Origin: a phage
Length of the DNA stretch: 64,000 nt
Reading direction: 5' to 3' (one strand)
Assembly: GCA_019326865.1 (NCBI GenBank)
Contig: GCA_019326865.1_4101.1
The position numbers and the translations under genes were made by a program. The notes under the pieces were generated by a model that ran no database searches, was not told the origin of the DNA, and saw only the letters and a program-made list of their open reading frames with translations. The first letter of the stretch is position 1. Every line of letters begins with the position of its first letter. Positions 1,280-12,517 of this stretch are shown piece by piece.

Positions 1280-3979
1280 ATGGCAAATAAAATATATGGT
1301 GGCATTGATGTTACACACAATGTCACAGTAAAAGGTAAGAGAAGTGCTCAGAGCATTAATGATGACGTATTTGATGAAAACGGTAATCTCACAATAGATG
1401 CATATACACAAGATGATATGTTAGAAATGGTTGGTATGTTACCAATTTCTCGTTATGGTACACAAAACTATCTACCTGCTGGTGTTAATGGTACAACAGT
1501 TGGTTCTTCAGAAAATGTGAATTCCAGAAATACAAAATTATTTTTAGAAGATGATAACACTTTAGTAATGTTACGTCCAGGTACTAATGGTAGTACTCAA
1601 GGTGTTTATTATAGTTATATGACCCAAGCAGTAGGTACAACAAATACAAGTCGTATGGTTAATACTACTCGTGCATATAAACCCAATTACTTTGGTGCAG
1701 CATACGCAGTTTATTTGTACCCAAGTAGTAATGATATTACTTGCGGTTTAGTGAGAATGGAGAATACCGATGGTACATATGTTGATAAAGTTTTTGTGTC
1801 AGATAATAATGGTACATTGAATGATGCAATGCACACTGGTATTATTCTATCAGATCATACAGCAGTACAACCTTTTGGTGCAATACAATTTGTTATTCGT
1901 GCAGAAGATGGTGCATTATATTTTTTTAGTTTAGATACACCAAATAATACTCTTAAAATATCCGTTACTAAAGTTACTTTTAATCCAAGTAATAACCCAG
2001 GTGGTGGTACTTATAGTATTACTAGAATTACTGGTTGGACTACAAGAACTTTTTATAATGCAATGATAGCTGATGAGAACATTGTTCCTACGATGAAAAT
2101 AAATTCAACAAATGCCAATGATACTCCATACGTTTTAATCCCAAGCGGTATTATTGGGTTTGGTGTTTATATGACAGATCCAGATTTATATGTTGCACAG
2201 AAATCAGGTACATCTACATTCAAATTTAGATTATGTGGTGATATGTGGATGAGTAATGGTAGATATGACACACGACCACAACATAGTTTTAGTATGACTT
2301 TTGATGTTGCAACGAAGCAATGTGCACTCGATAATATGACAACGACTGCACCTGTTGCTGTTTATGACAATGGTTCTAGCATGAATGCAACTGGACCTTG
2401 CTTGACAACTGACCCATTTTATCTTCATGCAGGTGCACGTAATATTTTCAGTAATTATTGCTATGTTCCATCAACAGGGGATGCGTTTTGTTCATTTTCA
2501 CCAAACCTAGCAGAACCATTGAATGTATCATATGCAAAATACCCACCAAAATCTTTATTTGATTTGATGGATGTTAGAAGTGTGTCAGCAACTAATTTTA
2601 TTAATGGTGTAGTATCACCAAGATTTGGTTCAGCAGTTGGTTCATACCAAGTAGGTGTAGAGTTATTACCAAATAACAGTACTAAACAATATTCAAGACG
2701 TTCTGGTGATGGTCGTTTTTTTCCATCCTATGCTGTTCATAAATCTACACCAAACTTTACATTCAAGTCATTGAGTTATGGTACAGTTCCTGGTTATGAA
2801 CCAACACCTGACCGAAATTTCATAACAACACCAGAATCACGAATTTTTATAAGTTCAATATCTGGTTCAAACGTCACTACTAATGGTGGTGTTTTGGTTG
2901 CTGACATTAGAACATCAACACCAATTAGTTTTGATTATAAAGGTAATGTACTGAATAATGGTACAATCAGTATGTCTCAAGATATAATGAATGCTATTAG
3001 GAATTCAGAATTTGCTAAAGTTGCTGGTTCTTGGGATATATCCCCAGCATCAGTAAAAACATTATCAGTTTTCGTTCCACAACAAACTGATATTCCTGTT
3101 TTCGCCGTTCTTGCTGCAACAACTAATTCCAGAGGACTATATATTCGTATGATTGAATTAGGTGTTAATACAAGAACAGGAGATATTACAACGTGGGCAT
3201 TTAAACGTTTAGTACATGAAAGTGTTCAAGCCCTGGATTACAAAACTGATGCCGGATATTATCTTGATAGTGGAAGTATTGGTATTACTATATATGATGC
3301 TGGTTCTTTTTACTTCATTGGTGGTGGTATTCCAGGTTTCTTTCCTACAGTTGGTAATACAGCTTCACCTTTTTTTCGTGCTACTGTAGATAAAGCAAGT
3401 AAGCAATTTAATAATTTCCATATAGCTGGTTATCGTCCCATCTATGCATTAGACGGTCAACCGTTCGCTTTACCTGGTATTGGATTTGGTATTCTTCAAA
3501 GTATAGATCTTCAAAACAAAACCATTTTTAGAACATATGGTACTACATTAGAAGATTATAATGCATGGACTGATAAAGGGAATCCATTCATTTGCGTTGT
3601 TTCACAAGACGTTGCTCAAGGTTTTATTATATACTTCACCGAAGAGACACCAGTACTGATATCTGGTAAGCACTATACGTTACCAATATCAAATATTGAT
3701 TTAACAAAAGTGAAAGCAAATCCTGCGAATACTACATTTTATGTGTATATTAAATTAGTGCAGGGTATTGCAAAGTATCATATATCAACAACTGAATTAG
3801 CTGAAACTCAGTCAATATTCTGGATTGGTACAGTGAAAACTAATGATTTACAAATAACCGAAATTAATATCGTTAAACGTTCGCGTTTAGATCTGTTTGG
3901 TGCATCCTATGACGCTGCCGGAAGTTCATTCCCAGTTAGTTCTGGTTTTCCTTCAGGTTCTGGCAATGTGAATTGGTAA
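1280..3979 (+). CDS. tail fibre protein, paralog A
   Basis: 899 aa, S/T/N/G-rich; N-terminal LPISRYGTQNYLP module and C-terminal module shared with ORFs at 3990 and 4595. Confidence 0.6.
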   Translation: MANKIYGGIDVTHNVTVKGKRSAQSINDDVFDENGNLTIDAYTQDDMLEMVGMLPISRYGTQNYLPAGVNGTTVGSSENVNSRNTKLFLEDDNTLVMLRPGTNGSTQGVYYSYMTQAVGTTNTSRMVNTTRAYKPNYFGAAYAVYLYPSSNDITCGLVRMENTDGTYVDKVFVSDNNGTLNDAMHTGIILSDHTAVQPFGAIQFVIRAEDGALYFFSLDTPNNTLKISVTKVTFNPSNNPGGGTYSITRITGWTTRTFYNAMIADENIVPTMKINSTNANDTPYVLIPSGIIGFGVYMTDPDLYVAQKSGTSTFKFRLCGDMWMSNGRYDTRPQHSFSMTFDVATKQCALDNMTTTAPVAVYDNGSSMNATGPCLTTDPFYLHAGARNIFSNYCYVPSTGDAFCSFSPNLAEPLNVSYAKYPPKSLFDLMDVRSVSATNFINGVVSPRFGSAVGSYQVGVELLPNNSTKQYSRRSGDGRFFPSYAVHKSTPNFTFKSLSYGTVPGYEPTPDRNFITTPESRIFISSISGSNVTTNGGVLVADIRTSTPISFDYKGNVLNNGTISMSQDIMNAIRNSEFAKVAGSWDISPASVKTLSVFVPQQTDIPVFAVLAATTNSRGLYIRMIELGVNTRTGDITTWAFKRLVHESVQALDYKTDAGYYLDSGSIGITIYDAGSFYFIGGGIPGFFPTVGNTASPFFRATVDKASKQFNNFHIAGYRPIYALDGQPFALPGIGFGILQSIDLQNKTIFRTYGTTLEDYNAWTDKGNPFICVVSQDVAQGFIIYFTEETPVLISGKHYTLPISNIDLTKVKANPANTTFYVYIKLVQGIAKYHISTTELAETQSIFWIGTVKTNDLQITEINIVKRSRLDLFGASYDAAGSSFPVSSGFPSGSGNVNW

Positions 3980-3989
3980 TGGAGAGAAT

Positions 3990-4580
3990 ATGTCTTATAA
4001 ATTTAGAGCAGATGTGGAAGCTTATGCTTCCGTTAAATCACAAGGAAAAAATACTGGGACCACGATAACTGTTCGTTCTGGTAATGTGTATCAAGCTGAT
4101 GCAAATGGGAATGTTGATATACCAGTCATGAGTACAGATGATGTGAATTACATTACCAGTTCGTTTCCGTTATCACAATTTGGACCACTTTACAGTGATG
4201 AACCATTAGGTATTACTTCTGCGGGTTTCAATTTAACTTTCAGCAAAGAATTACCGTTATTCATGGCGGGAGCGGCGTATACCCTCCCAGCAAAAACAAT
4301 AACAGATCCTGGTGTTTCTGGTACTAATATTGAAACACATTATGTATATGTTATATTAGATGTTGGGGTAGCTGACTACCTCATTTCTAAAACTCAACGA
4401 CCTGAAAGTAGTGTTAATATGTACATCGGAAAACTAACAGTTTTCCCAGATGGCATTACAGGGGTCAGTATAAATAAAGTGTCAAGATTTGACAACTTCA
4501 GAGTAAGTTCTACAAAAATTGGTTCAGCTATCCCTATCAGTTCTGGTTCACCAGATGTGAATGGTATGATAGAATGGTAA
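3990..4580 (+). CDS. tail fibre-associated protein sharing the C-terminal module of the flanking fibres
   Basis: 196 aa; C-terminus VSRFDNFRVSSTKIGSAIPISSGSP resembles the C-termini of both neighbours. Confidence 0.5.
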   Translation: MSYKFRADVEAYASVKSQGKNTGTTITVRSGNVYQADANGNVDIPVMSTDDVNYITSSFPLSQFGPLYSDEPLGITSAGFNLTFSKELPLFMAGAAYTLPAKTITDPGVSGTNIETHYVYVILDVGVADYLISKTQRPESSVNMYIGKLTVFPDGITGVSINKVSRFDNFRVSSTKIGSAIPISSGSPDVNGMIEW

Positions 4581-4594
4581 AGGAATATATATAT

Positions 4595-7336
4595 ATGGCT
4601 TCTAGACGAATTATAGGAAACGCAGATATACTAGGGAATTTAAAAATTAATGGAAAGTATGCATTACGTTCCCTTAATGGTGTTCCTGCTGACTCTGCTG
4701 GTAAAATCACTTATCAATATTATGACAAAGCGGAAGTAAATCAGATGTTTGATATGCTTCCAGTTTCAAGGGTAGGTGATCAAGATTACCTACCAATGAG
4801 TATTAACGGAACTTTTGAAGGTGCTTCTTCCTTTTCATTTGCAAAAATAATGCAACCTTGTATCATTGAAAATGATGGTACTGGTGTAATTTTACGTGCA
4901 GGTACAAATGGAAGTTCTTATGGTTACTATTATACTTATATTAAAAATATAAGAGATATAGAAACACTAACTCAAGATAATATAATTACAACCAATACGA
5001 TGTATAGACCGTCTGTGCTACCAAGTACTGATTACATTTATGAATTTTATGGGTCAAATGCATATGAATTACTATTTTGGGAATCAACTGATAGAACATC
5101 ATATTACCTTACATTAACAAATGAAACATTGAATGAATCAGCACACAAGCATTGCAGAATTCCAAAAACAGCAATAACAAATAAACCAATATATGCACAC
5201 ATCGTAAATGATTCAGTTTATATATGGTGTATGGATTCAAGTGTATTGAGTAGTGTTCGCGGGTGTGCATTTATTATATACACAGTACCTTTAACTGCAT
5301 TTAATACTGGTTCAGTTTCTACCGTAACACAGATTGGTGGTTATTCAGGAAGAACTATAAGAGATGCAACATATACTGCATCTAATAATATTCGCGTTTA
5401 TGATAGCTATTCTATTTTAGGTTCAGGTGGTGATGCACTAATAGTATATGATAATGGTGTTTCCAGAATAGATTATTGGGAAAATAACGTATTTAATACC
5501 CAAGCAGTTCTTAGCCCAGATGGTACAAAAATAAGAGTTGCGATCTATCCAGGGTTTCGTGTCTTTACCAAAACAAAAACATCTAGTGTATATGCACTTG
5601 GTATTAGCTTTACATATGATATCAGTACTAAAACAATGACACTTGATGGTTCTGAACGTGGTCCAATCAGAGTATCAGCTAATACATCAACTGGTAGTAT
5701 AACAGTAAGAAACCCGTTTTCAATCAATATGGAAAACTTTACAGGGTTTTATGACGGTGCACTTGGCAACTATGGTTCAATCTGTCAAACTTCTGATGGT
5801 TTTGTTTTCACTACCAAAGCAAGATGGACATCCACACCAACATATGCAGTACAAACATACAAAGTTTCTGGTACACCTTATGATAGTTGGGTCGCTAAAA
5901 CACGTACTGCTAGTAATTTAAAACGTGTCGAAGTAATGCCAGTTTATGGCTCCCCTGTCGGTGAAAACTTAATAGGTGTTCGTTTCGTAGATAAACGTAA
6001 GATACTTGTTGCATGTTCTGGCACTGCTGATGGAATTTCTTATGGTTATGATAGTACAGTTTTTACTGAAATAGGTGAGAATCCGACTTATGTTTATAAA
6101 AACTTGGAACAAAATACCACAATGAATGGTTTTGCACCATCAAGTAATAGACACTATTTAAGTACTGATTACAAATATGCAGGTATGATAACATTGGTTG
6201 ATGCAAATGGAAATGTCAGCACTTATGGTTCTTCGTTAATAGAAGACATCGATAAACCAGCGTATGGAAAATTCGACCCAGTTACAATGGACTTCGACAG
6301 TAATAGATATGAAATTTCAGGAACAACATTATCAAGTATAGGTGATAATGCAATTGCTAAAGCTGGATTGTCTGGAATAACTGATCATAAAACTGTTTTT
6401 TATTATGTACCTGATACTACATATTCTAAATCGATTGCAGTCACTTCTGCATTAAACGGTACTACCAATGTGTGTTATATTATTTTTTCCGAAATATCAT
6501 GTAGTGCAGTTGGTACAAGTGGTACTATAATTTTACGTGGTATTAATGTTGATACAGCAAGATATACATCAATGACGAATACATACCAAATTTCACCAAA
6601 TGAAATGGTCAAACGTTGGGCTGGTATGACGGTTTCTAAGTTTAATGGTTTTAACTACTTAGGCGTGAACATTTTATATGGCATTGATACCCCAGGTTGG
6701 ACTCGTTATCCTAACATGATTGCTAAAGTGAAAAATGGTATTATTTCAAGTCAACGATATATGGAAACAACTTATATTTCAAACGCACAATTTGATATAG
6801 GTACAATTCCAGGGATTGGGTTTGGATATTACCAAATGAACAAAAACGATTATCAAACTAAATCAGTTTTTGCTGTATGTGGTACTACTGAAGCAGATAT
6901 GGATAAACTAATATCTGGTAATGAAACGATATCACAGTACTTAGTTGTTGCTTCACAGGATGTGGCACAAGGGTTTCACGTATACTTTTCACAAGAAGTA
7001 CCAGTTTTCTTGGGTGGAAAGTTTGCAAAGATACCACCGACTATGATAGACTTATCTACCATAAGTACTACACCAGAGAATTCAACATTCTACATATATG
7101 CGGTGATGGATAGAGATACATCCACAGCATCGTATCAGATATCACTACATCAATTATCAGAAACTATGACATCAACATACATTGGTAAGATAGTAACTAA
7201 TAATAATGGTATTGCATCAATCGAGTCTGAAAAAGTTTCCAGATTCTTGCTATACCGTCCAAGTACCCACAGTCGTGGATCTGCTATCCCAGCTAGTTCT
7301 GGGTTACCATCACAATCTGGCTCCCGTTGGAAATAA
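4595..7336 (+). CDS. tail fibre protein, paralog B
   Basis: start moved to second ATG (MASRR...), which carries the same AAAGGRATATATAT-ATG initiation region as the gene at 1280; N-terminal LPVSRVGDQDYLP module. Confidence 0.6.
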   Translation: MASRRIIGNADILGNLKINGKYALRSLNGVPADSAGKITYQYYDKAEVNQMFDMLPVSRVGDQDYLPMSINGTFEGASSFSFAKIMQPCIIENDGTGVILRAGTNGSSYGYYYTYIKNIRDIETLTQDNIITTNTMYRPSVLPSTDYIYEFYGSNAYELLFWESTDRTSYYLTLTNETLNESAHKHCRIPKTAITNKPIYAHIVNDSVYIWCMDSSVLSSVRGCAFIIYTVPLTAFNTGSVSTVTQIGGYSGRTIRDATYTASNNIRVYDSYSILGSGGDALIVYDNGVSRIDYWENNVFNTQAVLSPDGTKIRVAIYPGFRVFTKTKTSSVYALGISFTYDISTKTMTLDGSERGPIRVSANTSTGSITVRNPFSINMENFTGFYDGALGNYGSICQTSDGFVFTTKARWTSTPTYAVQTYKVSGTPYDSWVAKTRTASNLKRVEVMPVYGSPVGENLIGVRFVDKRKILVACSGTADGISYGYDSTVFTEIGENPTYVYKNLEQNTTMNGFAPSSNRHYLSTDYKYAGMITLVDANGNVSTYGSSLIEDIDKPAYGKFDPVTMDFDSNRYEISGTTLSSIGDNAIAKAGLSGITDHKTVFYYVPDTTYSKSIAVTSALNGTTNVCYIIFSEISCSAVGTSGTIILRGINVDTARYTSMTNTYQISPNEMVKRWAGMTVSKFNGFNYLGVNILYGIDTPGWTRYPNMIAKVKNGIISSQRYMETTYISNAQFDIGTIPGIGFGYYQMNKNDYQTKSVFAVCGTTEADMDKLISGNETISQYLVVASQDVAQGFHVYFSQEVPVFLGGKFAKIPPTMIDLSTISTTPENSTFYIYAVMDRDTSTASYQISLHQLSETMTSTYIGKIVTNNNGIASIESEKVSRFLLYRPSTHSRGSAIPASSGLPSQSGSRWK

Positions 7337-7342
7337 TTTTAA

Positions 7343-7370
7343 AGCTCGTCTATTGACGGGCTTTTCTTTT
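7343..7370 (+). terminator. intrinsic terminator after tail fibre gene
   Basis: 8-bp stem (one G-U), loop TATT, T-rich run. Confidence 0.55.
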
Positions 7371-7404
7371 GTGTGTATAATACAAAGAAATATAGGAGGA
7401 AATT

Positions 7405-7968
7405 ATGGTCAAATCATTACTACCACCACCAAAACGACATAAAATCAAAGAAATGAAAGAACAACGCACATTAAAGATGTACAACAACTTAGTTAAGTTA
7501 CTTTGCAAAAGCCCATCACTCAAAGAAGTATTCACAACAGATGATGATCGTAACGCACTTATTGAGATGAAGTATATGCTCAGTAAAACGTCGTTTTATA
7601 AATTTGTTAAAGAATACTCATCTGATCCATTTAGTCCTCGTTGGCGAGTTAAACCAAGAGAATATTTCTTTGGTGGTGCATATACTGATACAATTCAAGA
7701 TACTGTCATTGGTGTTGAGTTTGAAATAGATTATGAACCTAATGGTGAAAATGTATACAATGATAAAAAAATGCCGAGTGAAGATGAAATTTATGTTTAT
7801 GCAAGAAAACAGACAACCTTCAGTTCGAGAATTGCTCTTAATAATTTAGATTCATTTATTATTTTCTATACACGTGTAGGTGTAGATAAAATGGTAACTA
7901 AGCTCAATGAATTATCATTACAACAAAAACAGATTAATGCATACAAAGACATTACAGATTTATACTAA
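7405..7968 (+). CDS. hypothetical protein, tandem paralog family member 1
   Basis: 187 aa; AGGAGG RBS; shares a D-[DH]-[DN]-R...E-x-KY-x-LSK motif block with the next two ORFs. Confidence 0.7.
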   Translation: MVKSLLPPPKRHKIKEMKEQRTLKMYNNLVKLLCKSPSLKEVFTTDDDRNALIEMKYMLSKTSFYKFVKEYSSDPFSPRWRVKPREYFFGGAYTDTIQDTVIGVEFEIDYEPNGENVYNDKKMPSEDEIYVYARKQTTFSSRIALNNLDSFIIFYTRVGVDKMVTKLNELSLQQKQINAYKDITDLY

Positions 7969-7974
7969 TGAGGA

Positions 7975-8496
7975 TTGGATATGTTTTTTGGACAGTTAAA
8001 AAAACCTAACAGTACTTTAATTTGGCATGAAATCATCTTTAAAATTATATCTAAAAGCTACTCACTAAAAGATATTATCAAAACAGATCATGATCGACGT
8101 GTTCTGTTAGAAGCAAAATATAAATTGAGCAAACACCCGTTACTTTCGTTAATCATTGATTACGTTAATGATTATGAATCCAGTCGTTGGAAGTGGGAAG
8201 ACGGAGGTTTATTTCGTGGAAAAACATTCTACGGTGCTGAACGATATGTATTCAGTGATACAGCAAATGATGTTAAGTTTGCTATTAGAAACTTTAACTC
8301 CAAAGAAAATGATTATCTTGAAAGTGGAGTTAAGGTGTATATAGATAATAATAGCAATGTACTTACATATGACGAATCACTAATTATGTTACAAATAATG
8401 CGTGGAGTTGAAAGTGTAAGACACAATCTTACTAAGTTGAAAATCCAGCAAAATGATATACATAATAGACAGAAAATTAAGGGTTTATATAAATGA
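7975..8496 (+). CDS. hypothetical protein, tandem paralog family member 2
   Basis: 173 aa; KTDHDRRVLLEAKYKLSK matches the motif in members 1 and 3. Confidence 0.7.
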   Translation: MDMFFGQLKKPNSTLIWHEIIFKIISKSYSLKDIIKTDHDRRVLLEAKYKLSKHPLLSLIIDYVNDYESSRWKWEDGGLFRGKTFYGAERYVFSDTANDVKFAIRNFNSKENDYLESGVKVYIDNNSNVLTYDESLIMLQIMRGVESVRHNLTKLKIQQNDIHNRQKIKGLYK

Positions 8497-9002
8497 TTTC
8501 ATTTTTCAAAAAGAAAGAAAAAGTTGATGAAACTGGATTAGAATCGTTTCTATGGACTCTTATCATTAAAAAAAGTCCATTGATGAAAGAATATGCTATC
8601 AATGATGCTAATAGAAAAACTATCATTGAATACAAATATGAATTATCAAAATGTGATCCAATTGTTTATCACTTTGCGAAGTACTGTTCTAACAATTTAT
8701 CGGATATCACTATTGAACACGAGTCAGTACCAATGAGTTTTCCTTATGGTGATTGGGTAGATACTTTTGATATTTTTGATGGTTCAAATGGTTTCAGTTT
8801 CTTTTACTCGTCAAATAAAGCAAATGTTCGTATTAAAACAGAGATAGGTTGGACACAGCATAGCTCAAATAAAGAAGATTATAATTTACTAGCTGACGTA
8901 TACCGAAGTGTGAAGAATTCAAAGGATATTGATGAAAGAATTAAAAAGCAAAATCGTATTTCTTTATCACTTGAAACATACAAGTCAAAGTATGGTGGTT
9001 AA
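8493..9002 (+). CDS. hypothetical protein, tandem paralog family member 3
   Basis: 169 aa; NDANRKTIIEYKYELSK motif; 4-nt overlap with the preceding gene. Confidence 0.7.
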   Translation: MISFFKKKEKVDETGLESFLWTLIIKKSPLMKEYAINDANRKTIIEYKYELSKCDPIVYHFAKYCSNNLSDITIEHESVPMSFPYGDWVDTFDIFDGSNGFSFFYSSNKANVRIKTEIGWTQHSSNKEDYNLLADVYRSVKNSKDIDERIKKQNRISLSLETYKSKYGG

Positions 9003-9004
9003 CT

Positions 9005-9406
9005 ATGACTACAGTTGATGATATCTATAGTACTATACGAAATATGAGTACAGATAGAAAAGTATTTGGTGATAAAGAAAAATCTAAGTGTTATGGTATT
9101 GATTCTTTTGATATAATTTCGTATGAGTACAACACGAATGGAAATAGTTCACTGAATATCGTCTGCCCTCGTGACCCAGAAAATAATTTTATGTATGTTG
9201 AAATTAATAATGATGGGATGTTTTTTACAAAAGTTTTCAAAGGTGGTATTAATTACGAACCTATTGAATGTATGAATGAAGAAACTTTCTTTCAAGAAGA
9301 TACAATTATCAATTTAGGTTTTAGTTTTGCGGATTATAAAACATTAGAACATGACTTTAATCGTTATTATAACGGTTTCTTAAAGGAGTTAACAATTTAT
9401 CTATGA
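9005..9406 (+). CDS. hypothetical protein
   Basis: 133 aa ORF in a co-directional packed array. Confidence 0.6.
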   Translation: MTTVDDIYSTIRNMSTDRKVFGDKEKSKCYGIDSFDIISYEYNTNGNSSLNIVCPRDPENNFMYVEINNDGMFFTKVFKGGINYEPIECMNEETFFQEDTIINLGFSFADYKTLEHDFNRYYNGFLKELTIYL

Positions 9407-10635
9407 ATAACCAATATGTTGAACAAACAATAGTGAAACACTTGGCTGGGTCACAAGCCTACGGAACCAGTACACCTGAAAGTGATACTGATTATCGTGG
9501 TATTTTTCTTGCTAATAAAGAATTTATTCTTACGCCATTCTATAAGGTTAAAGAAGTAGCTGATAAAAATGAAGAAGATACCAAATTCTATGAGTTAAAT
9601 CAGTATTTAAAATTATACACTGATGCTAACCCTAATATTCTGGAATCACTATGGGTTGAACCAGAACACATTGTAGAAAGTACTGAGATTTATGACTATC
9701 TTCGTTCATTTAACCAAAAACTTCTTAGTTCTAAGATTGCATTTTCATATACTGGGTATGCATACAACCAGCTTAAGCGTATGTCAAATCATCATGGTTG
9801 GATGGATAAAGAGCGTATTGCTGAAAAACGATTAAATGAGATTTTAGAAGAACACCCAGTCGATGAGGTTATTGCATGGATGTATGATACATTCCCACAA
9901 TATCTTGTTGAACGTTTAGATACATCTAACTTACATCCATTTAATGCTAAAAAGATCGATTTTGAAAAATATATGCGTGATACGTCATTGCAGTTAGTTT
10001 CGAAAAATCCATTAAAGCAATATCATTTTGTAAGATTAGTGCATAACTACACTACTGACAAAATTCTAGATCGTGATTTCAATTTATTGAATTTTAATAA
10101 TGGCTATGAACTAATTCATTACGGAGAAAACATTTTTGCGATTATTAAAAATCCGAATGAAAGCACTATCAACGGTGATGGTTCATTGCGTTATTTTTCT
10201 AAAGAGCGTAGTTCTGAAGAGTTGAAAACCCAACCAGAACTAATTGTAAAATTTAACGAAAAAGAATATCAGGAGAATAGTGAGAATAGAAAAAGTTATC
10301 ATAAATGGAAAGAAAATCGTAATGCAAAACGTGCTATTTTAGAATCAAAACACGGTTACGATTGCAAAAGTGCAATGCATACAATTAGACTTTTAAATAG
10401 TGCAGAAGATGCATTACAAAGTGGTATTATTCAAGTCAAACGTCCAGATGCACAAATGTTGATGGATATTCGTAATGGTAAATGGAAGTATGAAGAAGTC
10501 TTAGAATATTTCGATGATAAAGTACAATACATTCGTGATGTTCTATATAAGAAATCAGTACTTCCCAAAAAACCTAACATCAAGTTAGCATCGAAAATTA
10601 TAATTGATATTCGAGAAATGCAATGGTATAAGTAA
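9403..10635 (+). CDS. predicted Pol-beta-superfamily nucleotidyltransferase
   Basis: N-terminal GSQAYGTSTPESDTDYRGIF fits the [GS]-x(9-13)-D-x-[DE] NTase signature; 410 aa. Confidence 0.5.
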   Translation: MNNQYVEQTIVKHLAGSQAYGTSTPESDTDYRGIFLANKEFILTPFYKVKEVADKNEEDTKFYELNQYLKLYTDANPNILESLWVEPEHIVESTEIYDYLRSFNQKLLSSKIAFSYTGYAYNQLKRMSNHHGWMDKERIAEKRLNEILEEHPVDEVIAWMYDTFPQYLVERLDTSNLHPFNAKKIDFEKYMRDTSLQLVSKNPLKQYHFVRLVHNYTTDKILDRDFNLLNFNNGYELIHYGENIFAIIKNPNESTINGDGSLRYFSKERSSEELKTQPELIVKFNEKEYQENSENRKSYHKWKENRNAKRAILESKHGYDCKSAMHTIRLLNSAEDALQSGIIQVKRPDAQMLMDIRNGKWKYEEVLEYFDDKVQYIRDVLYKKSVLPKKPNIKLASKIIIDIREMQWYK

Positions 10636-10697
10636 TATATGGGTGTAATAGTTATAAAAATTCCATTACACACCAAATCACTTCAGTGATTTATAAC

Positions 10698-10725
10698 TTG
10701 ACATTGAAAAATAATTATGTATAAT
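10698..10725 (+). promoter_or_regulatory. sigma70-like promoter (TTGACA, 16-nt spacer, TATAAT)
   Basis: consensus hexamers read directly; followed at 10727-10756 by a hairpin plus T6 run upstream of the ACP-like gene. Confidence 0.5.
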
Positions 10726-10769
10726 TAGAGAACTTCATATGGAATTCTCTTTTTTATAAGGGTGATAAA

Positions 10770-11171
10770 ATGTTAAATGAACGTATTAAAAATGCACTAT
10801 ATGTATTGAACCAAGAAGTTAATTCTATTCATAAAAGTACTGAGCGATATAAAGTATTACATGAAATTAGACAAGAATTGGAATCTATTAATAAGGGAAA
10901 ATGGGTTCTTGAACGCGAACGAACTATTGTTGAAAAAGCAATTGCAAAATTCATCTCGGAACGTTATGGTAAAATTTCAGAGGAAGATGTACTAATGAAC
11001 TTACATCTTTCACAAACGGAAGTGATGGAGAAATTTCATTTTGATTCATTAGACTGGTTAGAAATGATCATGGAATTGGAAGAAGAATTCAATGTAGAAG
11101 TAGATTTATATTATGAAAAACAAGAAACCAAACTATATGAACTAGCAGAACACATTAAACTAATGATGTAA
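10770..11171 (+). CDS. acyl carrier protein-like protein with N-terminal extension
   Basis: FHFDSLDWLEMIMELEEEFNVEVD parallels the ACP phosphopantetheine-site helix (DSLDTVELVMALEEEF). Confidence 0.6.
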   Translation: MLNERIKNALYVLNQEVNSIHKSTERYKVLHEIRQELESINKGKWVLERERTIVEKAIAKFISERYGKISEEDVLMNLHLSQTEVMEKFHFDSLDWLEMIMELEEEFNVEVDLYYEKQETKLYELAEHIKLMM

Positions 11172-11224: not shown

Positions 11225-11599
11225 ATGAGTATACTAGAAATAATAGTTTCAAACATTCTTATTCCATATTGGAAACCAATTTCTTTTGCATTATTAATTA
11301 GTGGTTCAGCAATTGCGGGTTGGAAAGCTAATACTTATTATACTGGTTATCAAGAAAGTATAGAGCAACAAATAGCCAAAAAAGTTGATATAGCACTTGA
11401 TAAAATGCAACAAGAAAATACAAAAAGCTATCTTGAAACAAAAAAAATTATGGAAGATAATACAAAAGTCATTGAAACAAAGGTTCCTTATATAGTAGAA
11501 CGTGAAGTTTATAAAAATGTTTGTTTAGATGAAGATGGTGTAAAAGTACTGAATGAACTTAAACAAAATTCTAAAGCGGCAAGGAATAAATTCAAATGA
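11225..11599 (+). CDS. putative i-spanin (Rz-like)
   Basis: 124 aa; N-terminal hydrophobic TM segment then charged helical region; overlaps the next gene by 4 nt. Confidence 0.5.
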   Translation: MSILEIIVSNILIPYWKPISFALLISGSAIAGWKANTYYTGYQESIEQQIAKKVDIALDKMQQENTKSYLETKKIMEDNTKVIETKVPYIVEREVYKNVCLDEDGVKVLNELKQNSKAARNKFK

Positions 11600-11904
11600 A
11601 AAAAATGTTAGTACCGTTTATTTCTTTTTTAATTATAAGTGGATGTGCAGAACAAGTAAAAGTACAATCCCCTGCACCAATTAAACAAGAAATTCTGTTA
11701 GAAAGATGTGATGATGACACACCACTACCACAAAAAATTATGATTGACCAAAACGGATTTAAAGGGTATAGTGGGAGTGAAATTCTCAAAGTTCTTACCC
11801 GTTGGGATGCAATCTATAACGAATGTGCATTGAAACATGATGCATTGATCAAAACCATTCGTGATTTACAAGGTAAAGATATTAAAATAAATATCAAGGA
11901 TTAA
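11596..11904 (+). CDS. putative o-spanin lipoprotein (Rz1-like)
   Basis: 102 aa; signal peptide with lipobox LIISGC; further Cys residues; Pro-rich. Confidence 0.55.
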   Translation: MKKMLVPFISFLIISGCAEQVKVQSPAPIKQEILLERCDDDTPLPQKIMIDQNGFKGYSGSEILKVLTRWDAIYNECALKHDALIKTIRDLQGKDIKINIKD

Positions 11905-11905
11905 A

Positions 11906-12517
11906 ATGAACAAATATCATGTTTATTATACAACAAAGTTATCCCTTCTTGATGAATTAAATCACCGAAGTACTAAGATGAAACGTTATACTTTAAATGG
12001 TATTACTTTTCGATATTTCCCACAAAAAGTCCTTACTTTTGTCAAGAATCCAAAATGCGTGGCATGTGGGATTGAAGCCACTGAAGTACGCATTGAACGT
12101 ACATTTAGTTCTGATCCAGTTTATGGTAAACCACATTTAAATGTATATGCGGTATGTGGTCTTTATGAAGTGTTGATGACAGTTGATCACAACCATCTGG
12201 CATCGAAGGGTGGTTGTGATTTAGAGTCAAACTTTAATACTATGTGCTCCAAATGCAATCAACTACGTTCTAATAAAACCGAAACAGTTGATGAGTTTCT
12301 TGAGAAAGTTAAAGATCGTAATCTTCTCCAAGAACATATGAATAAATTCTTTAACGTACAAAAAAAGAAAAATAACATTGACAAGTCGAAACTACTAGAA
12401 GAACGTAGGTTACGTCAAGAATTATGGGAAACAGACCATCTATGGCATGTTCGAGAATTTGGTCGTCATATGAAAGCTTTGAAAAAAGAACAGAAGAAAT
12501 TGAATAAACATGATTGA
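11906..12517 (+). CDS. HNH endonuclease
   Basis: VDHNHLASKGGCDLESNFNTMCSKCNQLRSNK fits the HNH motif (DH...N...C-x-x-C-N). Confidence 0.6.
   Translation: MNKYHVYYTTKLSLLDELNHRSTKMKRYTLNGITFRYFPQKVLTFVKNPKCVACGIEATEVRIERTFSSDPVYGKPHLNVYAVCGLYEVLMTVDHNHLASKGGCDLESNFNTMCSKCNQLRSNKTETVDEFLEKVKDRNLLQEHMNKFFNVQKKKNNIDKSKLLEERRLRQELWETDHLWHVREFGRHMKALKKEQKKLNKHD

Follow-up and report, generated by a model that had tools for sequence, protein, structure and literature searches.

The window analysed here is a 64,000-nucleotide stretch of phage DNA (contig GCA_019326865.1_4101.1). Three open reading frames on its plus strand, designated A, B and C, lie end to end at positions 7405–9002 and are followed by ORF D and a gene for an RlaP-family nucleotidyltransferase. 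The features of the region are as follows.

7341..7364, plus strand: intrinsic-terminator-like hairpin found by sequence scan, with a 10-pair stem followed by a T-run; it ends the upstream cluster of fibre-like genes.
7353..7381, plus strand: near-consensus sigma-70-type promoter (TTGACG, 17 nt, TATAAT; 11/12 matches).
7394..7399, plus strand: Shine-Dalgarno sequence AGGAGG, 5 nt upstream of the ATG of paralog A.
7405..7968, plus strand: paralog A, 187 aa, subfamily 1 (phrog_18641), dN/dS 0.15.
7981..8496, plus strand: paralog B, 171 aa from the ATG at 7981, subfamily 1 (phrog_18641), dN/dS 0.19.
8493..9002, plus strand: paralog C, 169 aa, subfamily 2 (phrog_7868), dN/dS 0.10.
9005..9406, plus strand: ORF D, 133 aa, acidic (pI 4.4) and strongly conserved, phrog_22376 (unknown function), 2 nt after the stop codon of C.
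9403..10635, plus strand: RlaP-family Pol-beta nucleotidyltransferase (PF10127; Pfam E = 9e-16; phrog_388), last gene of the unit.

The window is AT-rich (GC about 0.30–0.35) and contained no detectable tRNA or Rfam elements. A DNA search with nucleotides 7000–9500 retrieved 36 phage records at 86–97% identity (32 Escherichia and 4 Salmonella), of which UE-S1 and ph0011 were the closest to the window. All of the inspected records with a genus assignment were Asteriusvirus, and record sizes ranged from 310 to 386 kb. The window belongs to this genus (the 121Q/PBECO4/G17 group), whose members are RaK2/121Q-like jumbo coliphages with myovirus morphology. A common gene order, nrdD, nrdG, fibres, the A–C array, RlaP, spanins and HNH, was found in all of the RaK2-like genome contexts examined.

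The ORF listing bore out the three plus-strand reading frames at 7405–9002 that the original prediction had described, and their tight head-to-tail spacing can be stated exactly: A and B are separated by 12 nt, B and C share a 4-nt ATGA overlap, and C and D are separated by 2 nt. Of the predicted lengths of 187, 173 and 169 aa, the first and last stood, while the second needs revision. It assumed a start at TTG 7975; the start of B is likely the ATG at 7981, giving 171 aa, because that codon is preceded by GAGGA at 7970–7974 and all of the GenBank relatives annotate a gene of 516 nt.

Homology among the three proteins was examined by pairwise and profile methods. BLASTP aligned A with B over their full length (174 residues, 30% identity, E = 1e-16), whereas the matches of A with C (E = 1e-5) and of B with C (7e-5) covered the N-terminal 50–70 residues. 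In Smith-Waterman comparisons against 1000 shuffled sequences, z values were 24.3 (A–B), 6.5 (A–C) and 5.2 (B–C), and in each case the observed score lay above that of every shuffle; ORF D, next to the trio and used as a control, gave z<1. Against PHROG profiles, A and B matched phrog_18641 (E = 3e-74 and 1e-80) and C matched phrog_7868 (2e-57), in each case over the full length. Because B also matched the PHROG of C from end to end (E = 2.9e-12), C is a full-length relative. No fourth copy was found within the 64-kb window by either pairwise or profile search. Compositional similarity alone, which was to have overturned the original prediction, did not account for z values of 5–24 and BLASTP E values down to 1e-16, and the homology stands. 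We conclude that A, B and C are true paralogs and real, selected genes.

The original prediction had also noted a shared motif. The block is present in A, B and C; its first element, given as D-[DH]-[DN]-R, was drawn too narrowly, since C reads D-A-N-R. From the alignment, the family signature is D-x-x-R-[RK]-x-x-I-x-x-K-Y-x-L-S-K, located in an N-terminal domain in which it was found in all three paralogs; its second element is a Tyr, at the C-terminus or close to it, that never varies. Residues D36, R39, K46, Y47 and S50 (numbering of B) are nearly invariant across the alignment. An AlphaFold2 model of B, made with a 28-sequence alignment, was confident (pLDDT 88.6, pTM 0.79) and placed helices at residues 15–23, 29–32, 36–50 and 55–63, four strands within 70–121, and one helix at 130–169. 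The model and the alignment predict a common three-part architecture, in which a helical N-domain of basic character is followed by a beta sheet that varies and then by a C-terminal helix ending in Tyr. The N-terminal 65 residues are basic in 15 of 16 members (pI 8.9–11.3). Conservation was highest in the N-domain (2.13 bits per column) and lowest in the middle (1.35), where the beta-sheet region varies in sequence and in length (54–84 aa); the C-terminal helix is fixed at 41–42 aa.

Searches for a function or a known fold gave no supported match. A Pfam scan of 28 members yielded nothing beyond ten single-member matches, which we judged to be noise. Neither a whole-family profile nor an N-domain profile matched any PDB sequence, and comparison of the B model with the PDB gave no significant fold match. 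Among known architectures, the head-plus-stalk folds (XRCC4/SAS-6/PAXX; LolA/NTF2-like half-barrels), in which a long helix comes after a beta sheet, are among the closest. With PADLOC the sole match was a weak one of A to DUF2290 (E = 0.001), absent in B and C; a match of B to ribosomal protein S14, at 16 bits, fell far below the cut-off of 187 and was treated as noise. Among the general Pfam and PHROG libraries, which are not specific for anti-defence proteins, no functional match pointing to known anti-defence homologs was found for A–C. The earlier statement that the family has no recognisable function was thus upheld, in that neither Pfam nor NCBIfam gave a supported match and the PDB gave none of significance, whether sequences or folds were compared.

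The family is small and restricted. An exhaustive profile search of 1.84 billion cluster representatives recovered only 30 proteins, of 46–209 aa and mostly full-length. The ten clusters whose members were checked came from metagenomic contigs of 0.7–356 kb, and their sole named member was from a phage. A word-indexed protein search with B as the query returned only proteins that were at least 84% identical. Orthologs are present in over 40 phage genomes, and every RaK2-like phage examined carries one to four copies. By tBLASTn and profile scans, there are three in Asteriusvirus and in Salmonella phage Munch, two in the Alcyoneusvirus phages RaK2 and Muenster, four each in GAP32, CBB and Yersinia phage fHe-Yen9-03 (Yen9-03), and one or two in metagenomic relatives. 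The PHROG catalogue lists phrog_18641 and phrog_7868 as separate families, both of “unknown function”, with members including 121Q gp502–504, RaK2 ORF001/002 and GAP32_146/148/150/151. The cross-match of B to phrog_7868 and a joint profile, which missed no copy in the named phage loci to which it was applied, instead point to a single superfamily that split long ago into two branches. Its members are restricted to jumbo phages of the RaK2-like kind. In a neighbour-joining tree the A/B-type branch lay apart from the C-type branch, at least one member of each subfamily was kept in all six of the named-phage lineages placed, and the A/B split came before the window lineage and phage A4 parted. 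The retention of both subfamilies across RaK2-like genera and the age of the A/B split indicate that the array is old and not the product of a recent tandem burst. Two sets of candidate relatives were rejected. Profile-profile comparison gave probabilities of only 0.2% and 5% that ORF D and the RaK2 ORF004-type protein, respectively, are hidden family members, and T4 nrdC.1–10 and mobD.1, tried because RlaP is a homolog of T4 NrdC.11, had no similarity to the family.

Upstream of the array lie three ORFs of 899, 196 and 920 aa, which encode fibre-like virion proteins. The phAPEC6 ortholog of the ~900-aa proteins, gp323c, was detected in virions by mass spectrometry, and CBB_148/149 are annotated as structural; in CBB only the ~900-aa proteins carry such an annotation. 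The fibre-like genes are preceded by ATAAATA at 1240–1246, a late-type motif reported for CBB and GAP32 (PMC5259590). The hairpin at 7341–7364, which carries a terminator annotation in G17, Munch and Muenster, separates these genes from the array, and the −35 hexamer of the sigma-70-type promoter lies inside it, in the loop and 3' arm, with the TATAAT at 7376–7381. This composite of terminator and promoter is kept in nine phages (ph0011, G17, Ecwhy_1, UE-S1, A4, Turkey5, Munch, GAP32 and Yen9-03), and in Yen9-03 the −35 and −10 signals are annotated at the equivalent place. The following strong promoter is downstream, at 10698–10725. In each genus examined, the genes ahead of the array encode fibres or tailspikes. 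In Muenster, which belongs to the genus of RaK2, the upstream genes are annotated as SP6-, phi92- and P1-like tail fibres and are not of the ~900-aa family, and the array is kept. The original prediction placed the three genes directly after the tail fibre genes. This is correct as to position; however, a terminator and a promoter intervene, and the link is positional only. The virion mass-spectrometry table of phAPEC6 lists gp314c, gp315c and gp323c, and gp316c–gp321c, which include RlaP, D, C, B and A, are absent from it.

Downstream, paralog C is followed by ORF D, which is unrelated to A–C and for which the structure model was unreliable (pLDDT 49). ORF D is joined by an ATGA overlap to the RlaP gene, whose product is homologous to T4 NrdC.11 (E = 3e-14) and carries the G-S...D-x-D motif of Pol-beta nucleotidyltransferases. 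This operon partner was absent from the original prediction. A-B-C-D-RlaP forms a single conserved, tightly packed gene string behind the sigma-70-type promoter. The family was found upstream of RlaP and on the same strand in 19 of 19 loci, namely those of the window, ph0011, G17, phAPEC6, Ecwhy_1, UE-S1, A4, Turkey5, RaK2, Muenster, Munch, GAP32, CBB, Yen9-03 and five metagenomic contigs. On one of these contigs (L022) RlaP is present and frameshifted in the assembly; on the most divergent one (L019) a family member directly abuts RlaP. In GAP32, CBB and Yen9-03 the string also includes a gene for the tRNA-His guanylyltransferase Thg1, flanked by family copies, and further genes with no relation to the family (a DNA methyltransferase, DUF4326) are scattered through the array. 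RlaP adds one or two NMPs to damaged RNA 3' ends and, in vitro, makes over-damaged tRNA functional again (PMC12776372), and it has been predicted to act in RNA repair in jumbo phages (PMC7824862). Within the ph0011 stretches that match the operon and most of the window (all except a short stretch at the window start), no RNA ligase, kinase/phosphatase (Pnkp), RtcA or RtcB is annotated. Well downstream of the operon, ph0011 has annotated genes for a CCA-adding enzyme, a macro-domain protein and a peptidyl-tRNA hydrolase.

Selection was estimated as dN/dS by the Nei-Gojobori method for five close genomes, and as pN/pS for each domain with phAPEC6 added (six genomes). The dN/dS values were 0.15, 0.19 and 0.10 for A, B and C, 0.05 for RlaP and 0.26–0.30 for the fibre genes. 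Every domain of A–C had a pN/pS below 0.3. The three genes are under purifying selection among close relatives, and the averaged estimates, which would miss positive selection limited to single sites of the variable beta region, contain no diversifying signal. The idea of “diversifying” tandem paralogs in the original prediction was not sustained by the dN/dS check among close relatives. Anti-defence genes often bear the signature of an arms race, from which such short-range purifying selection differs.

At longer range the pattern is different. Between the window and A4, identity was 34–37% for A–C, 61% for D and 87% for RlaP; A–C thus diverge far faster than their neighbours. The fibre trio of the window is 89–99% identical to that of ph0011 and A4 and only 40–55% identical to that of UE-S1 and G17. 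Comparison of the window with UE-S1 gave 95–100% identity for A–C and 40–53% for the fibres, whereas comparison with A4 gave the reverse, with 89–94% for the fibres and the low values above for A–C. The region is therefore mosaic, and the A–C alleles assort independently of the fibre alleles.

Our preferred reading, to which we assign a probability of roughly 0.4, is that A–C are early, cytoplasmic, non-virion accessory proteins that take part in the conflict between host and phage, the RNA damage/repair axis being the most plausible setting; the N-domain would be a binder and the variable sheet would confer specificity. Going by promoter type only, the unit would be transcribed early by host RNA polymerase; no transcriptome for the RaK2-like clade was found in the literature, and searches by locus tag and accession found nothing on the A–C proteins. 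The sigma-70-type promoter, the absence of the proteins from the virion proteins reported, and the fast long-range divergence fit host-interaction or counter-defence genes. The conserved N-domain may provide a shared binding function, with nucleic acid or a common partner as its ligand, and the variable beta sheet may determine the target. The RNA-damage/repair axis is suggested as the likeliest setting by the operon partners, because RlaP extends damaged RNA 3' ends and Thg1, in the sister genera, repairs tRNA 5' ends. In that setting A–C could neutralise host RNA-cleaving effectors, or could recruit damaged tRNA or RNA to the repair enzymes. No homology was found that ties A–C to RNA or to any defence system, and the N-domain matched no nucleic-acid-binding fold. 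The adjacency to RlaP is weak functional evidence, because all of the loci come from one phage clade whose genomes are collinear throughout. A more specific and doubtful form of the proposal is that the family is a clade-specific partner of RNA-end repair enzymes with a new fold. Its two subfamilies would form a heteromer that senses damaged tRNA or delivers it to RlaP or Thg1, or that blocks defences of the anticodon-nuclease type, with the beta region again giving specificity.

The same genes could instead encode generic early host-takeover or counter-defence proteins with targets outside RNA repair, next to RlaP merely through inherited synteny. We regard this as the main rival, possible though somewhat unlikely. 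The identical gene order in all of the RaK2-like contexts examined would be expected of such synteny, the DNA methyltransferase and DUF4326 genes interspersed in GAP32, CBB and Yen9-03 are in keeping with it, and A–C evolve far faster than RlaP. It accounts less well for the persistence of translational coupling and a single promoter across genera, for the member that abuts RlaP even on the most divergent contig, and for the occurrence of two distinct RNA-end repair enzymes, RlaP and Thg1, in the string of the family. A role as DNA- or RNA-binding regulators, in which an HTH-like N-domain and oligomerisation through the C-terminal helix would tune early or middle expression of phage or host genes, seems improbable. 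The N-domain is basic, C had a weak match to the C-terminal part of an HNH endonuclease PHROG family (E = 0.02), and the stretch K-Y-x-L-S-K-x-T-L-Y looks like the segment of TetR/resolvase-type HTH motifs that forms the turn and the recognition helix, a likeness that we treat as a lead only. Against this, Pfam found an HTH family in none of the 28 members, and the N-domain profile retrieved no HTH protein from the PDB.

The position of the array behind fibre or tailspike genes in each genus examined raises the question of whether A–C help the ~900-aa fibre-like virion proteins to assemble, as chaperones or as accessory factors, and chaperones would likewise be expected to be missing from virions. 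Known fibre chaperones (T4 gp38/gp57A and the Tfa type of lambda and Mu) share with A–C a small size, a location directly 3' of fibre genes, and absence from virions. They differ in that A–C are set off by a terminator and served by a separate early-type promoter, with the late-type ATAAATA in front of the fibre genes instead, and in that there is no similarity of sequence or fold. The strongest argument against a fibre-specific chaperone role is the independent assortment of alleles, since A–C do not co-vary with the fibres in the comparisons with UE-S1 and A4. In addition, Muenster keeps the array behind different fibre genes, and the copy number of one to four does not track the number of fibre genes. 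We therefore disfavour this role and consider it very improbable. Lastly, an AT-rich genome and Lys-rich proteins could produce compositional similarity or spurious ORFs. That explanation is refuted by the z values, by composition-adjusted E values as low as 1e-16, by the full-length profile matches, by the low dN/dS, by the confident AlphaFold model and by the orthologs in over 40 phage genomes.

Our favoured assignment of A–C to the RNA damage/repair axis can be compared with described RNA-repair systems. Like other RlaP neighbourhoods (PF10127; T4 NrdC.11; the bacterial RtcB-RlaP-RtcA operons), the unit contains RlaP, to which sister genera add Thg1; unlike them, it has no annotated ligase, kinase/phosphatase, RtcA or RtcB. 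The described systems have no counterpart of A–C, and the genes beside nrdC.11 in T4 are not homologous to them. The sequences themselves were already known, having been deposited in GenBank and PHROGs as hypothetical proteins. What is new is the merger of two PHROGs, the fold without a match, the definition of the operon and its promoter, the association with RlaP and Thg1, and the evidence against a link to the fibres.

Therapeutic use of RaK2/121Q-group jumbo phages is under development, although no function is known for about 80% of their genes. The present results detach this trio from the fibre genes beside which it is usually drawn, and assign it to a conserved, apparently early-type operon that it shares with RlaP, an RNA-repair enzyme whose biochemistry was not worked out until 2025. 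If this association is not functional, the trio would be one more fast-evolving family of early accessory proteins. If it is functional, the trio would offer a handle on how large phages respond to RNA-cleaving defences and on the role of RlaP in infection; and should the proposed heteromer acting as a repair partner prove to be right, A-B-C-D-RlaP would be a previously undescribed phage operon for counter-defence against RNA damage.

The two sides of the junction at window 7336-7405, between the fibre-like virion protein genes and A-C (the three tandem paralogs of a function-unknown family), form a recombination mosaic. The fibre trio of the window was 89-99% identical to that of ph0011 and A4 and 40-55% identical to that of UE-S1 and G17, whereas A-C were 95-100% identical to their counterparts in UE-S1 and only about 35% identical to those in A4. 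Because the trio and A-C have opposite identity patterns, we place a breakpoint at the terminator/promoter element. At 7341-7381 terminator and promoter are fused into one element: the −35 hexamer occupies the hairpin's loop and 3′ arm, the terminator T-run forms the spacer, and TATAAT comes next. This composite is kept in nine related phages from several genera.

Features in and around the gene string, by window coordinates
37-396, separate glycyl-radical-domain ORF (119 aa), after nrdD
393-722, DUF4326 ORF, next after it
1240-1246, ATAAATA, upstream of ORF 1280-3979
1280-7336, three genes for fibre-like virion proteins (899, 196 and ~913-920 aa)
within 7341-7381, −35 hexamer TTGACG
9005-9406, ORF D (133 aa, pI 4.4)
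10698-10725, sigma-70 promoter, perfect (12/12), preceding the ACP-like gene
10770-11171, ACP-like gene
11225-11904, i-spanin/o-spanin pair after the ACP-like gene (o-spanin lipobox LIISGC)
11906-12517, HNH endonuclease, after the spanin pair

ORF D, which lies between C and the nucleotidyltransferase gene RlaP, is strongly conserved, with 58-98% identity over its ten known clusters and 52 invariant columns; it is missing in GAP32, CBB, and Yen9-03. A search for a Pfam match to ORF D gave none, and its structure model was unusable (pLDDT 49).

In G17, phAPEC6, A4, and Turkey5 an additional pair of fibre genes separates RlaP from the ACP-like gene; this pair is absent from the window, ph0011, UE-S1, and Ecwhy_1 (window 10636-10769 compared with L002 12538-15956, L004 11241-14655, and L012 11660-15078). 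RaK2, GAP32, Munch, and Yen9-03 have, immediately after RlaP, another small family of paralogs whose C-termini end in ..DY.CGY (L003 3113-4031, L008 10269-11670, and L009 9592-10483); the window lacks this family. In the window the DUF4326 gene follows the glycyl-radical-domain ORF; GAP32, CBB, and several metagenomic relatives instead have it within the paralog array.

Within the fibre-like trio, the C-terminal ~120 residues of both large proteins recur on their own as the 196-aa protein (phrog_26864 and the C-terminus of phrog_3573), and the motif G-S-x-x-P-x-S-S-G-x-P closes all three proteins. The upstream ATAAATA, preceded by a terminator hairpin (~1208-1232), agrees with the motif that has been reported for late promoters of structural genes in CBB and GAP32, and suggests that the fibre-like genes are late and the A-RlaP unit early.
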